Source of the DNA: a virus
Lineage: Duplodnaviria; Caudoviricetes
Reading direction: 5' to 3' (one strand)
Length of the DNA: 27,888 nt
Virus record (IMG/VR): IMGVR_UViG_3300031519_000169
Coordinates: 1-27,888 of that record
The notes below the pieces were generated by a model, which had not been told where the DNA came from, ran no database searches, and saw only the letters and a program-made list of their open reading frames with translations. Shown here piece after piece: positions 3,000 through 11,196 of this stretch. The first letter of the stretch is position 1; every line of letters starts with the position of its first letter. The translations under genes and the position numbers were made by a program.

Positions 3000-3027
3000 T
3001 TGACACAACGTAAAGTATGTATAGAAT
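3000..3027 (+). promoter_or_regulatory. Sigma70 early promoter
   Basis: TTGACA-16 nt-TAGAAT, AT-rich upstream, about 30 nt before ATG 3060. Confidence 0.75.
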
Positions 3028-3059
3028 AGATAGCACACACACAGAGAGAGAATAATAAA

Positions 3060-3461
3060 ATGACTATACAAATACACGGACTAGAGTACTTCACTTACTG
3101 CGAAACAATGGGCCTATCCAAATGTTTTAAGGCATTGGCTAAAATTGCGGATAAATGTGTAATGGATGATTGCATCGGCTTTAATGCTAACAGCGGTTAT
3201 GTATACATTGCATTAGAGGACGGTATTACCATCGCCAGTATGTTAGGGCGTGACGTTGAGTACATAGTTACCGATTATAACGACGGTGAGGAATTTTTCT
3301 TTGATACATACAAGGAAGCCGAAGCAAAGCTTGAAGAAATGAGCGGTGAAGAAGAAGAAGAAGAAGAAGCAACACCCGAAAAGTTCGAGACTGTACTACT
3401 TGAAGGTGCAGAGCTTGAAGCATATATTGCAACACGTTTTAATAATGAGGTGACAGCATGA
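3060..3461 (+). CDS. Acidic early hypothetical protein
   Basis: 133 aa with a poly-Glu tract (GAA x7). First gene after the early promoter. Confidence 0.8.
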   Translation: MTIQIHGLEYFTYCETMGLSKCFKALAKIADKCVMDDCIGFNANSGYVYIALEDGITIASMLGRDVEYIVTDYNDGEEFFFDTYKEAEAKLEEMSGEEEEEEEATPEKFETVLLEGAELEAYIATRFNNEVTA

Positions 3462-3649
3462 ACAAACGAGCATTAATGAGCGTACAGGTAATAGATTTTT
3501 ATCTTGATTGGTTCAATAACTACCTTACAGTGGATAAAATAGCTGAACATCACGGGCTTGATGTGGATGATGCAAAAGCACTGATTAGCATGGGGCGATA
3601 TATGCACCATAGGCACGTTGAAATGATGAATAGAGAGGTGACAGCATGA
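3458..3649 (+). CDS. Early hypothetical protein, possible HTH-like
   Basis: 63 aa, GAGG SD, ATGA coupling, LTVDKIAEHHGLDVDDA segment. Confidence 0.75.
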   Translation: MNKRALMSVQVIDFYLDWFNNYLTVDKIAEHHGLDVDDAKALISMGRYMHHRHVEMMNREVTA

Positions 3650-3849
3650 GCAACCAAATAGGTAAGCAATACAAAACGCGTGGTAAGCATCCTAGACTAT
3701 GTACAGTGATCGACGTACATACAACATACAACCAAGCAGGCGACATAGTAAAGATTCGCCATGTATCAGAGCATGACTTTCTAGGTCAAAAAGTGATCGA
3801 CAGAGACGTATCTATAACAACTATTTTAATGAATGAGGTTACAGCATGA
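3646..3849 (+). CDS. Early hypothetical protein
   Basis: 67 aa, GAGG SD, ATGA coupling. Confidence 0.75.
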   Translation: MSNQIGKQYKTRGKHPRLCTVIDVHTTYNQAGDIVKIRHVSEHDFLGQKVIDRDVSITTILMNEVTA

Positions 3850-4013
3850 AACTTACAGACAACAGAATAGCGGCTCAAAATAGGGCCGCTCGATACCTAG
3901 CACAAAAGCAGTTTGAACAAGATCAGAAGCAACACCGCGACATGGATAGATTCATGGCGTTCGTATGTGGAATATCTGTCTGCGTTATTGTTCACTTTTT
4001 GGGGGCGTTGTAA
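3846..4013 (+). CDS. 55-aa early protein with C-terminal transmembrane segment
   Basis: Not in the track. MKLTDNRIAAQNRAARYLAQKQFEQDQKQHRDMDRFMAFVCGISVCVIVHFLGAL, coupled at both ends (ATGA, TAATG). Confidence 0.75.
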   Translation: MKLTDNRIAAQNRAARYLAQKQFEQDQKQHRDMDRFMAFVCGISVCVIVHFLGAL

Positions 4014-5294: not shown

Positions 5295-5369
5295 TCACTT
5301 TAATATTAAATCATCCTTTGCAATGGCGACTAGTCCGCACACTACAACTATTATGCAATAAGTTATCAT
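5295..5369 (-). CDS. 24-aa hydrophobic micropeptide
   Basis: Not in the track. MITYCIIVVVCGLVAIAKDDLILK with GAGG SD, just downstream of a promoter. Confidence 0.6.
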   Translation of the reverse strand: MITYCIIVVVCGLVAIAKDDLILK

Positions 5370-6154: not shown

Positions 6155-6750
6155 GCTAATTTCTCCGTTTCGTTAATAATAATTGTAACAGCTTTGTCTA
6201 TTTCAGCCGCTAATTTTTCAATATACTCGTCGTCCCTCTCCACCCTGATAAGTAGGTGAGGCAAAGTCTCAGAGTACGCCATTAAATCCCACCACTTAGC
6301 ACCAGTAATCATCATACAGCCCATGATTTGTTGCTTATACTTGGTGACAAATGTTTTGTTGTTGCGATGATAGCCTATCATTGTCGAGTCAGCTGGACAT
6401 TTTATCTCTAATCCGCCATTTTTGTCCACTAGACCATCAGGTGAGCATCCAAACTCTTCAGAAGCATCCAAGATAAACCCATATTCGGTTACTTTTTGCT
6501 CAGTTATAAACTCGTAATGCTCTCTGGCTTCTGGTTCGAGCCTTGTTCCACGCTCCATATGCTCATTGACGTAGATAGGGACGCGAATGCCATTCAACCT
6601 TTCAGCTATTAGCTCGTTTATGTAGGTATCAGCACTAGCACTGGGCTTTCCTGCCGACGTTATGAGCTTGTTAAACATGGAAGCGGATGGTCTGCCTAAT
6701 CTACTGGCAAACCACTCGTCACTTCCCTGCTCATGGTCTAAGATAATCAC
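6151..6750 (-). CDS. YqaJ/lambda-exonuclease family recombination nuclease
   Basis: QGSDEWFASR...SAS, G..LEPEAR, CSPDGL and LEIKCP motifs. Confidence 0.92.
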   Translation of the reverse strand: MIILDHEQGSDEWFASRLGRPSASMFNKLITSAGKPSASADTYINELIAERLNGIRVPIYVNEHMERGTRLEPEAREHYEFITEQKVTEYGFILDASEEFGCSPDGLVDKNGGLEIKCPADSTMIGYHRNNKTFVTKYKQQIMGCMMITGAKWWDLMAYSETLPHLLIRVERDDEYIEKLAAEIDKAVTIIINETEKLA

Positions 6751-7286
6751 TTGTTAGCCTTTGCCTTCAGCGCACTAACAGCCTTAGAGTAATGTACAGC
6801 TAACATTTCATCGACTGAGCTAGTTTTGAAGTGTTGTAAAAATACTTTAACATCCACACTATGCTCCGCTAATAGTCCCTTGATCTCTGCGGCTTGATCT
6901 TCTGACACTACAGCAGTTTGTACGGCTTGCGGTAAGTCTTCCCCTGCATAGATGTAAGCTCCTAGACCATGCATGGCGATAGCTTTCACCAAACACCGCA
7001 TACGAGCGTCTGAAATGTCCCTAGAGCTAGGGTTAACAATAGATTTGTTGCGATTATCCATTACTGGTAGCCACATAGAATGCGTTTTACCCTCTACCGT
7101 GACAGAAACATTCACCTCACAAGTGCCATTTTCTAAAAACGATGGTGGACAGTAAGTGTAACTCGACTCAGGGTAATGCTCGTTCAGTGTTGACCACGCC
7201 CATGCCCATGATAGATAGGATAGGTTGCCTTTTTTCTCAATGTTCTTTGATACGTCTATTGCTGATAATGTTTTCCAAGTATTCAT
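6747..7286 (-). CDS. sak: Sak/DUF1071 (Rad52-like) ssDNA annealing protein
   Basis: IEKKGNLSYLSWAWAW, LPVMDNRNK and RCLVKAIAMHGLGAYIYAGED motifs. Confidence 0.88.
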   Translation of the reverse strand: MNTWKTLSAIDVSKNIEKKGNLSYLSWAWAWSTLNEHYPESSYTYCPPSFLENGTCEVNVSVTVEGKTHSMWLPVMDNRNKSIVNPSSRDISDARMRCLVKAIAMHGLGAYIYAGEDLPQAVQTAVVSEDQAAEIKGLLAEHSVDVKVFLQHFKTSSVDEMLAVHYSKAVSALKAKANK

Positions 7287-7447
7287 TACTTACTCCCTGC
7301 TGATTGGTTCTGCTCTAGCACATATCGTGCGCCATAGCCTATATAGTATGCGTCTGACTCGTCCTCTCTGACAGTTTCGCCACGTTGACAGTCATAGTTG
7401 CCACGGTCAAGGTCATTTAAAAACTCAATATCGGTTCTGTTATTCAT
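7286..7447 (-). CDS. 53-aa hypothetical protein
   Basis: Not in the track. MNNRTDIEFLNDLDRGNYDCQRGETVREDESDAYYIGYGARYVLEQNQSAGSK, with ATGA and TAATG coupling at the ends. Confidence 0.75.
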   Translation of the reverse strand: MNNRTDIEFLNDLDRGNYDCQRGETVREDESDAYYIGYGARYVLEQNQSAGSK

Positions 7448-7659
7448 TTTTTACCCCACATTGTGTCCCAACGGTTTAGAATTGCTTGCACTTGCTGTTC
7501 TTTTTTATCGTAAGCTAATTTATCTTCCATCGTAAACTCTGATTCGCGATTAGCCGGTGGCATTTCATACGACGCTAAATCACTAGTGTTTTTGCCAGTT
7601 ATCTTACTTATAAAGTTAGTGAAATAATCTTCTGGATGCTGTATCGGGTGATCTTTCAT
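7444..7659 (-). CDS. Hypothetical protein, first gene of the leftward early operon
   Basis: 71 aa, AGAGGA SD, directly after the promoter. Confidence 0.75.
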   Translation of the reverse strand: MKDHPIQHPEDYFTNFISKITGKNTSDLASYEMPPANRESEFTMEDKLAYDKKEQQVQAILNRWDTMWGKK

Positions 7660-7686
7660 TTTATTATCCTCTGTTGTTGTAGGTTT

Positions 7687-7716
7687 ATTCTATAACTATT
7701 ATTAATGCCTTGTCAA
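7687..7716 (-). promoter_or_regulatory. Leftward sigma70 promoter (PL-like)
   Basis: TTGACA (7716-7711)-18 nt-TAGAAT (7692-7687). Confidence 0.7.
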
Positions 7717-7723
7717 ACACTTG

Positions 7724-7752
7724 TTGACTATCTAACTAAATTAAATTAAAGT
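7724..7752 (+). promoter_or_regulatory. Rightward sigma70 promoter (PR-like)
   Basis: TTGACT-17 nt-TAAAGT. Confidence 0.7.
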
Positions 7753-7778
7753 TCACTCTCACTTACAAGGAAATCACT

Positions 7779-9098: not shown

Positions 9099-9566
9099 AT
9101 GATAAGCGATAGAAGAACAATATTAATTGAGTACAGAGGTGATAACCCTAAGTTAGTTTCTGGGCATATTTATAATAGACATGACATAGCAAAAGCGTTC
9201 GGCATATCACGATCAACGGTTGCTACTAAGCTCAAAGGAAAAACAATAATGGTTGACGATGACTTGATTTTGTTAAAGCCTCAACAATCTCATAAAACGT
9301 TTGAAGAAAAACGCATGACCTATATGGGAAAAAATATAAATGGGTTTGAAAACGGCAAAAAATACACTTACAAAGAAATATCTCAGCGAACAGGACTAGG
9401 TGCGAACGCTTTAAACAAAAGAATAGGTAAATCACTTGTATTTAATGAGCATCACGCCCGACCAAAATCTAATAAAGAGCCTATCATTTCAAACAAAGAG
9501 TTTAGTATTCAGTTTGAAAACTATCCTCACATGGTTAGCGCAAAATGGTTAAGGAGGAAATTCTAA
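9099..9566 (+). CDS. Protein with two tandem HTH-like repeats
   Basis: Y.G.N.....G..Y....I....G......K occurs twice. AGGAG SD. Confidence 0.65.
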   Translation: MISDRRTILIEYRGDNPKLVSGHIYNRHDIAKAFGISRSTVATKLKGKTIMVDDDLILLKPQQSHKTFEEKRMTYMGKNINGFENGKKYTYKEISQRTGLGANALNKRIGKSLVFNEHHARPKSNKEPIISNKEFSIQFENYPHMVSAKWLRRKF

Positions 9567-10112: not shown

Positions 10113-10517
10113 ATGGCTAAAACTTTACGCGCACAATGCTTGATAAAAGCACAGAAGTTGGCACGAATATCAGCCGCAGATGAGTATGGCATGGTTGAAT
10201 GTGTTTCATGCGATAAGAGAATGGGTTGGAAGGAATGCGATGGTGGTCACTACATAGCCAAAGGTAATTCGTCGTACTGGTCGCTTGAGATGGAGAATAT
10301 CCACCCCCAGTGCAAAGGATGTAACGGTTTCGGTATGAAGCATGGCAGTGCAGAAGGTCAGTACACGCTATGGATGATTGATATGTACGGTGAAGACTTT
10401 GTTAGAGAAATGCATAGAGACAAGCGCAAGATCAAAAAGTTATACACTGCTGACTACAGAGAAATGCTAAAAGAGTTCAATGACTTAATTAAATACCATG
10501 AGGAGAGACTACAATGA
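10113..10517 (+). CDS. ninG: NinG/Rap-like HNH-type endonuclease
   Basis: CVSC...DGGHYI...ENIHPQCKGCN. Likely start at MAKTLR (10113); 10002 is an alternative. Confidence 0.8.
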   Translation: MAKTLRAQCLIKAQKLARISAADEYGMVECVSCDKRMGWKECDGGHYIAKGNSSYWSLEMENIHPQCKGCNGFGMKHGSAEGQYTLWMIDMYGEDFVREMHRDKRKIKKLYTADYREMLKEFNDLIKYHEERLQ

Positions 10518-10747
10518 CTGGATATTTACAAGAGCTAAGAGCAAGAGCAATTAAATTTGAAATGAGTGAAATCCCTGCCAAGATGGATTCTATTGTTGAG
10601 GCAGTCATTTACGGACACGCACTCCCTGCATACGCTAGAGAAGAATTAGATTTAATCTGGCTAGAGGTAGAGGCAGAAGAAGAGGCTTGGTTAGAACCAC
10701 CAACAGAAGAAGAATTAAAGTTGCTTCATCCTAACTTTGATGTATAA
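10514..10747 (+). CDS. Acidic hypothetical protein
   Basis: 77 aa, GAGGAG SD, ATGA overlap with ninG. Confidence 0.7.
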   Translation: MTGYLQELRARAIKFEMSEIPAKMDSIVEAVIYGHALPAYAREELDLIWLEVEAEEEAWLEPPTEEELKLLHPNFDV

Positions 10748-10748
10748 T
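10721..10748 (+). promoter_or_regulatory. Promoter of the candidate small RNA
   Basis: TTGCTT-16 nt-TATAAT. Predicted start near 10755. Confidence 0.55.
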
Positions 10749-10754
10749 AACCTT

Positions 10755-10903
10755 GTGTTGACTGTCTTGGTTTTCAGTTTATTGTTAAGGGTTGTGCAAC
10801 CAACCGCTCGACAGGAGTTGCGTCAACAACTTCTATCAAACTAAAAGTTTAAATCGTTATTCTGTATTACCTCTGTTGTTTTGCCCTTTCGGGGGCTTTT
10901 TTT
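10755..10903 (+). ncRNA. Candidate ~150-nt trans-acting small RNA
   Basis: Bounded by a promoter and a terminator, with no credible ORF. Has a 5' interrupted hairpin (10756-10828) and an anti-SD segment (10856-10880). Confidence 0.55.
10883..10903 (+). terminator. Intrinsic terminator with UUCG loop
   Basis: GCCCT-TTCG-GGGGC followed by T7. Confidence 0.85.
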
Positions 10904-10911
10904 GTTATAAT
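10903..10911 (+). promoter_or_regulatory. Extended -10 promoter, probably giving a leaderless mRNA
   Basis: TGTTATAAT, then 6 nt, then ATG 10918. No SD. Confidence 0.7.
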
Positions 10912-10917
10912 ACAGCT

Positions 10918-11196
10918 ATGGAAAAGAAGAGCTTATTAAAACGAATTGGTGTCTCTGGTTACAATAAACCTAAACGCACACCTAGCCATCCAACAAAATC
11001 TCACGTTGTTGTTGCCAAGTCTGGCGATCAAGTTAAAACTATCCGGTATGGTCAACAAGGCGTATCTGGTGCAGGGTCTAATCCTACTACTGAAAAGCAG
11101 AAAGCTAGACGCAAATCATTCAAAGCTCGTCACGCTAAAAACATTGCCAAAGGTAAGATGTCTGCGGCATACTGGGCTAACAAATCAAAATGGTAG
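10918..11196 (+). CDS. Small basic protein, 92 aa (RRKSFKARH...SAAYWA type)
   Basis: Start moved to MEKKSLLK, because the track's longer start crosses the terminator. Very Lys/Arg-rich. Confidence 0.8.
   Translation: MEKKSLLKRIGVSGYNKPKRTPSHPTKSHVVVAKSGDQVKTIRYGQQGVSGAGSNPTTEKQKARRKSFKARHAKNIAKGKMSAAYWANKSKW

Follow-up and report, generated by a model that had tools for sequence, protein, structure and literature searches.

A putative phage-encoded small RNA (sRNA), predicted at positions 10755 to 10903 on the plus strand of the DNA stretch analyzed here (the window, a 27.9-kb virus record estimated to be 85% complete), would act in trans: its U-rich 3′ seed would pair with early leaders and their Shine-Dalgarno (SD) sequences, that of the first leftward gene above all, and shut down translation. 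From sequence comparisons, we put the probability of this reading at about 0.6. The underlying unit of promoter, seed, and terminator is, in our view, a candidate for a real, conserved, and undescribed sRNA.

The window encodes virion proteins of podovirus type and a terminase, together with a lambdoid early module in which a leftward recombination operon (with a Sak-like annealase and an exonuclease) diverges from a Cro-like gene followed by a replication initiator, NinB, and NinG. Small genes next to terS form an operon of their own, running rightward. A promoter scan of the window found two near-consensus early promoters, one at 3000 to 3027 (+) and the leftward TTGACA-18-TAGAAT at 7716 to 7687 (−). 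Between the divergent promoters, at 7690 to 7760, there is an inverted AGTCAA...TTGACA arrangement kept in all lineages compared, a candidate operator of the Cro-like protein. The protein encoded at 9099 to 9566 contains two HTH-like stretches with sigma70 region 4-like Pfam matches below cut-off and is a candidate late activator. The lysis and structural genes are oriented opposite to the sRNA locus, and no integrase or CI-like gene was found among the 47 proteins scanned in this 85% complete record. Among GenBank phages, only the downstream basic-protein genes matched (best 20 of 54 matches), and a genome scan returned one 30.9-kb contig, lacking the RNA, in a MAG labelled Piscirickettsiaceae, insufficient to assign a host. 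RNA runs with parts of the region were labelled seawater or marine. Related loci and genomes compared with the window are referred to by L-numbers.

The last gene of the Cro-replication-nin operon encodes a 77-aa protein of unassigned function (10514 to 10747, +) that matched no PHROG or Pfam family. Its 3′ end holds a predicted sigma70-type promoter, TTGCTT-16-TATAAT (10721 to 10748, +; TTGCTT at 10721, TATAAT at 10743), the same type as the early promoters, which was missing from the promoter-scan list because its −35 matches at just three of six positions. With its start placed from the −10, the predicted RNA opens with an optional hairpin module A (10755 to 10777, +), made of a short outer stem, a bulge, a 4-bp inner stem, and a variable loop, followed by two overlapping type-B hairpin modules (approximately 10782 to 10839, +) read from sequences and folds. 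The seed (10856 to 10882, +) has an allele-variable 5′ part and the core TGTTGTTTT at 10874 to 10882. It is predicted to be largely unpaired, the mean unpaired probability of its last 12 nt being 0.57 to 0.98 in 22 of 25 alleles and about 0.3 in the other three. It abuts an intrinsic terminator (10883 to 10903, +) with a UUCG-containing loop and a U7 tail, for which the scan finds the hairpin 10883 to 10896 plus U7; the tail is merely 5 to 6 U in L016-L019 and L058-L061. The promoter, the seed (10856 to 10880), and the terminator of the original prediction, made from the window alone, were all located letter for letter where it had placed them. The length of about 150 nt that it proposed agrees with 10755 to 10903 in the window but is not essential, as forms of about 40 nt exist. 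A promoter and an intrinsic terminator of its own, with no conserved ORF, are, at the level of sequence, what is expected of a trans-encoded sRNA. So is a conserved unpaired seed complementary to distant mRNAs, a feature that fails for the early leaders of the L018/L060 lineage.

Downstream of the terminator, a separate −10 (TATAAT) is followed by the ATG of the next gene at 10918 (10906 to 10920, +), both missing in L016-L019. This gene (10906 to 11196) is leaderless, with its ATG seven bases past the −10 that comes after the terminator U tract, and is the first of a block encoding small basic proteins, which L016-L019 likewise lack.

Between the promoter and the seed, alleles carry zero to three hairpin modules, which are exchangeable. 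Among 15 distinct versions of module A, the outer stem was fully paired (3/3) in 14 and the loops were variable; this count came from a regular expression that selected for the stems and mis-registered the inner stem in five versions. Module B is present in zero to two copies in relatives, with variable loops and whole stems exchanged between alleles; L048, L063, and the window have it in duplicate. Read on the plus strand, module A has 18 G-U versus 2 A-C positions. A structured RNA from the minus strand was ruled out, although the window itself folds better there (z −2.68 versus −0.55 on the plus strand), because the plus strand gives the better fold for 14 of 19 module regions (U-rich sequence favors it anyway), because of the G-U excess in module A, and because promoter and terminator face the plus strand. 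The claim that the segment holds no credible ORF needs qualifying: a 34-aa ORF exists at 10740 to 10844, but it was rejected as the product since it is not conserved in relatives. Also rejected were a role of the middle modules as additional seeds (they have no meaningful match of at least 10 letters to start regions in the window) and, by eye, loop A-loop B kissing, CsrA-type GGA loops, boxB, and anticodon or T-loop mimicry, none of which fits all alleles.

Using the 77-aa gene as bait, we collected 18 viral and 30 metagenome loci; after removal of duplicates, the window's own contig, and early-ending loci, 41 sequences including the window were examined. Promoter, U-rich seed, and terminator were kept in 39 of these; the promoter-terminator pattern was matched in 38, and the other, L049, combines the seed with a variant form of terminator. 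L056 and L057 have lost the −10 at the stop codon and carry a new TTGCGG-17-TATACT and an altered seed instead. The spacer between promoter and seed spans 24 to 134 nt in the 41 sequences and shrinks to about 20 nt among all relatives, and the seed and terminator therefore represent the core of the element. NinG as bait gave 80 of 230 relatives, with 63 new loci examined. In 13 of these (L076-L088) the RNA was mostly about 40 nt long with TAGAAT as its −10, three (L096-L098) had the layout of the window in different letters, in three both leader and terminator were different, and in the remaining 44 a strict scan met no terminator within 1.8 kb. A census of 111 sequences found the layout in 55 and the core TGTTGTTTT in 49 of the 55; many of the genomes are near-identical and all are related, so these counts are not independent. 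L090 and L140 carry a homologue of the 77-aa gene and no RNA. In L016-L019 a convergent endolysin gene directly follows the terminator and there is no plus-strand gene, so the RNA would be the sole product of the promoter-terminator unit. The locus is hypervariable even among near-identical genomes. Seven RNA runs, available as assembled contigs, covered the flanking genes and sometimes bridged the locus, with none of them isolating the RNA; their contigs showed further short alleles with the seed kept, and their gaps at the variable spacer are allele differences. The Rfam search suggested in the original prediction gave no match at the gathering threshold in the window or in nine relative loci, the best hit of a permissive search having an E value of 0.77.

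Pairing was calculated with RNAduplex, which includes no accessibility terms, against 46 curated start regions of the window. The first leftward early gene (7444 to 7659) provides the main predicted target, its 5′ leader (7660 to 7680, −), with an 11-bp site at 7668 to 7678. The original prediction had named this leader among its targets, equating 10865 to 10880 with 7662 to 7678 with one gap; the match is as described, no seed match in the window is longer than its exact 11-mer (10870 to 10880, equal to 7668 to 7678), and the leader ranks first of 46. The second and third ranks, absent from that prediction, are the start region of gene 7286 to 7447 (7435 to 7470, −) and, as a weaker predicted target, that of the Sak-like annealase gene 6747 to 7286 (7275 to 7311, −), so that the best 3 of the 46 are the first three leftward genes. 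The duplex energies were −20.5 (7659), −19.3 (7447), −17.4 (7286), −17.2 (3646), and −15.8 (terS). The terS start, named in the caveat of the original prediction, is at rank 5, and 3458 and 3846 come next. The rightward early operon starts at 3060, 3458, 3646, and 3846 (3035 to 3860, +; promoter 3000 to 3027), which include the junction repeats and the RBS of gene 3060 proposed previously, are weaker predicted targets: their 6-bp Watson-Crick cores are there, extended by G-U pairs and bulges, but they rank only 4, 6, 7, and 10 (3060). The RBS of a micropeptide at 5369, put forward as a weak target, came 18th of 46 and was dropped; the ORF itself (5297 to 5369, −) has 24 codons, is hydrophobic, precedes a phosphoesterase gene, and is unsupported as a target.

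Shuffled controls supported this ranking in part. The energy difference between early and other starts (−3.2 kcal/mol) was reached in 8/1000 dinucleotide shuffles, and the early bias in 106/1000 when the ACCTC core was held fixed. Early RBSs took positions 1 to 3. The best duplex energy in the window was matched by 165/1000 shuffles, and three non-start sites in the genome equal or exceed the score of 7659. Dinucleotide shuffles gave an 11-bp helix with one or another of the 46 start regions in 86/3000 cases, and with the 7659 leader itself in 4/2000. With the 14-nt core, one of 13 early starts in the window forms at least 7 Watson-Crick pairs. The invariant seed portion lies opposite the ACA-rich stretch 5′ of the SD more than opposite the SD. 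The window alone is therefore suggestive, with energies moderately above controls, and the case is carried by the comparative data.

In five of seven genomes, the longest helix with the core lay in an early leader (window, 11 bp; L012, 10 bp; L016, 9 bp; L082, 13 bp; L080, 10 bp), and no late start in the seven reached 8 bp. In L016, L080, and L082, three early starts each form at least 7 bp, and no late start does. The window-type seed CCTCTGTTGTT stands opposite the leader AACAACAGAGG and the L082-type seed CCTTTTGTTGTTT opposite the leader AAACAACAAAAGG, a G-C pair of the helix being replaced by A-U between the two types. Window-type seeds form 10 to 11 bp with their own leader and 8 bp with the L080/L082 leader, and the L080 and L082 seeds form 10 and 13 bp, respectively, with their own leader and 7 bp with the window-type leader. 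The compensatory change that the original prediction had asked for in relatives was thus found in one clear case, the window lineage versus L080/L082; judged from the sequences, clean compensation is essentially one event. Its broader proposal, a trans-acting RNA against several early cistrons, drew support from conservation, from the early bias of the longest helices, and from this compensation at the first leftward leader, and lost ground through the micropeptide site and the weaker pairing in the rightward operon.

When 11 distinct seeds were set against their own start regions, permutation gave 48/20000 for the top three and 346/20000 for the top one, with some false starts among the automatic calls. 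An ACA-type motif, chosen after seeing the data, was present in 22/137 early versus 2/123 late starts of 11 related genomes. In line with the proposed pairing, L140, which lacks the RNA, has no early start (0 of 11) that forms 7 bp with the seed of the window. Other comparisons were negative or partial. The RNA is retained in the L018/L060 lineage, its first leftward leader pairs over just 5 bp, and the GCC seed variant of L018 has no compensating leader change. L016 combines an L082-like leader with a window-like seed in a 9-bp helix, a partial match only, reached in 97/2000 shuffles. An energy-based cognate test on the first leftward leaders alone was not significant (14/120, 11/120, 2298/40320), and the early-late top-three difference lay clearly beyond shuffles in just 4 of 11 genomes. 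The RNA of L096-L098 forms 8 + 6 bp with its own first leader, an energy reached in 159/1000 shuffles, and was excluded from the support. In some alleles, the window not included, the variable 5′ seed portion follows the start of the tandem-HTH gene at 9099, whose RBS varies with the seed allele in some relatives; in L009 and L011 seed and gene start match over 13 exact letters. This tracking may be linkage. By eye, the first rightward early leader of L012 matches the window seed over 14 letters; that leader (L012:140-200) opens a 9-codon minicistron coupled to the next gene.

Other readings of the locus were weighed against these data. That the RNA aims mainly at host mRNAs with ACA-type enhancers, as a GcvB mimic or general anti-RBS RNA that early leaders match through the same enhancer, appears unlikely to us. 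It would explain why L018/L060 keeps the core without a matching early leader, why ACA-rich first-gene leaders also occur in distant phages with no RNA at the corresponding position, and why several alleles carry tandem anti-RBS units, and GcvB does silence ACA enhancers according to the available part of PMC3879156; yet seed and phage leader differ in step between the window lineage and L080/L082, and late phage starts are largely spared. Nor do we think it probable that the pairing serves kin superinfection exclusion, with the early genes of related incoming phages as its targets, or maintains a carrier state, outside any lytic timetable. The match between the window seed and the L012 leader fits such a role, as do the better pairing of the L011 seed with the L080 leader than with its own (−21.2 versus −19.3), the hypervariability of the locus, and the lack of integrase and CI-like genes noted above, but cross-pairing is expected from the shared ancestry of the leaders.

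The same low credence goes to a vestigial pR′-type leader, whose terminator would end the middle operon, with the U-rich tract as terminator context and its complementarity to A-rich sequence as compositional chance. L075, where modules A and B lie between promoter and terminator before a holin-like gene without the seed, is what such a leader might look like, U-rich seeds pair easily with A-rich leaders, and several shuffle tests were not significant. Against this reading, the promoter is kept or rebuilt in every lineage, 49 of 55 loci retain the core seed across spacers of about 20 to 134 nt, and the same early leader gives cognate helices of 10 to 13 bp. Very unlikely, finally, is that the shared motif acts as DNA, an operator or UP-like site near promoters, or is the relic RBS of a lost minus-strand gene. 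It does lie at +3 to +13 of the leftward promoter and at about −47 to −36 of the promoter at 10906, and a minus-strand hairpin, RBS, and ATG in distant phages (L122) look alike. Against this, the motif persists without the downstream promoter and gene in L016-L019 and is found at internal early RBSs, in each case 5′ of the SD. The original prediction had stated that no minus-strand start codon follows the motif, which is so in the window and in 51 of 55 loci, the other four having an ATG (in L009/L011 it gives a 7-codon frame), and the shortest forms are too small for a gene.

We therefore favor a trans-acting RNA directed at the phage's own early leaders. Host polymerase would make the short RNA from its weak promoter, or it might be released as the 3′ end of the Cro-replication-nin transcript, and it would accumulate as the genome replicates. 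Probably with help from Hfq, the seed would bind the mRNA of the first leftward gene by pairing at its unstructured, ACA-rich leader and SD, and other early starts less strongly; the duplex would exclude the ribosome and block initiation, and mRNA decay would follow. Such an RNA might serve as the early-to-late switch of the original prediction; its promoter is of the sigma70 type shared by the early promoters. By analogy, the sRNA would likely repress ACA-rich early leaders by a GcvB-like logic. The presence of modules A and B in the pR′-like leader of L075 suggests that the RNA descends from a lambda pR′-type terminated leader. A more ambitious version, which we find somewhat doubtful, is that of an undescribed sRNA family of lytic phages, derived from a pR′-type late leader, that shuts off its own early operons by masking ACA enhancers and is a counterpart in RNA of RegB, down to about 40 nt; the seed would track the leaders, and diversifying selection would act separately on the swappable hairpins with hypervariable loops, perhaps as decoys for RNA-binding proteins of the host or phage.

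Several other loci had related or unusual features. L075:11150-11300, L089:11130-11250, and L101:7560-7660 each have a pR′-like promoter, a hairpin leader, and a terminator, flanked by a zinc-finger-like gene upstream and lysis-type genes downstream; the L089 leader carries an anti-SD tract within a hairpin loop, and L075 has an integrase-like gene in its ORF list. Directly before a terS-like gene, L099:11780-11870, L100:4530-4630, L106:4270-4365, and L108:13235-13325 show a conserved promoter-like box, a leader of about 50 nt with two anti-SD tracts, and a terminator, which could be a cis-acting late-operon attenuator or an anti-SD RNA. Duplex tests found no early preference for the anti-SD leaders of L089, L099, L101, L106, and L108. 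In the rightward early operon of the window, repeated junctions of GAGGTGACAGC-ATGA type (3444-3461, 3632-3649, 3832-3849) follow proteins ending in EVTA, and the genes between them differ among relatives, like exchangeable cassettes. About ten small middle-operon genes in L018:6270-8330 are joined by a repeated CCAGTGGGGGTGAAGTG-ATG junction.

Among known phage RNAs, C4 RNA of P1/P7 and CI RNA of P4 act in trans on their own mRNA via short complementary boxes; both are processed, multi-stem immunity RNAs with the pairing boxes in loops. Rfam families include GcvB and C4. Unlike C4 and CI, the window sRNA has one linear seed before the terminator, dispensable hairpins, and no Rfam match. P22 sar, lambda OOP, and aQ are small antisense RNAs that keep phage mRNAs from being translated or destabilize them, as far as the accessible part of PMC12197685 describes them; they are cis-encoded and overlap a single target there, whereas the window sRNA is encoded 3 kb and 7 kb away from its predicted targets (7668 and 3041 to 3844), overlaps neither, and would pair imperfectly. 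GcvB of enteric bacteria silences multiple targets at ACA translation enhancers immediately upstream of the SD (PMC3879156, available part), the position at which the window sRNA is predicted to pair with ACA motifs. From the same portion of that paper, GcvB is a chromosomal amino-acid regulator, and the window sRNA differs in being phage-encoded and 40 to 150 nt long, with a seed abutting the terminator and predicted phage targets. By Rfam score and target overlap, the window sRNA is outside the GcvB, C4, and cis-antisense groups.

To our knowledge, early-gene shut-off in phages that depend on host RNA polymerase is known for few models, all by proteins. One protein acting on early mRNA is T4 RegB, an endoribonuclease that cuts GGAG in translation initiation regions (PMC3014915, part seen); both RegB and the window sRNA would inactivate early mRNAs at initiation regions, the one as a protein nuclease and the other by predicted RNA pairing. 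Our literature search, which covered few subscription papers, found no paper on a trans-encoded phage sRNA silencing its own early leaders; the accessible part of the 2025 review PMC12197685 describes no such RNA, and the phage sRNAs in the literature examined, some of it partial texts, were either cis-antisense or host-directed. The natural 40-nt minimal form and the natural seed and leader variants make the system directly testable with reporters.

The window sRNA also resembles the terminated leaders of lambdoid phages. An Hfq-binding module consists of a U-rich stretch, a hairpin, and a U tail in the part of PMC4509938 available, and the sequence of the window sRNA has this arrangement. 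Lambda 6S RNA is Hfq-bound, has a single lambda early-operon partner by RIL-seq, and is without a known role (bioRxiv 10.1101/2024.10.31.621285, accessible part), and StxS is an Hfq-bound pR′ leader turned sRNA that acts on stx1AB and rpoS (PMC7547250, accessible part). In these partial accounts, StxS targets are not early phage genes; no sequence likeness of the window sRNA to 6S or StxS was found, and the window family, unlike these, has no Q-like gene before the promoter and no co-directional late operon after the terminator. As in the same accounts of 6S and StxS, though, a short terminated RNA follows directly on the nin region of a lambdoid-type early module, a position confirmed by the NinB and NinG families that precede it, and the pR′-like leader of L075, which resembles lambda pR′-6S-tR′, carries the hairpin modules of the window sRNA. 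The window sRNA suggests a function for terminated pR′-type leaders such as lambda 6S RNA.
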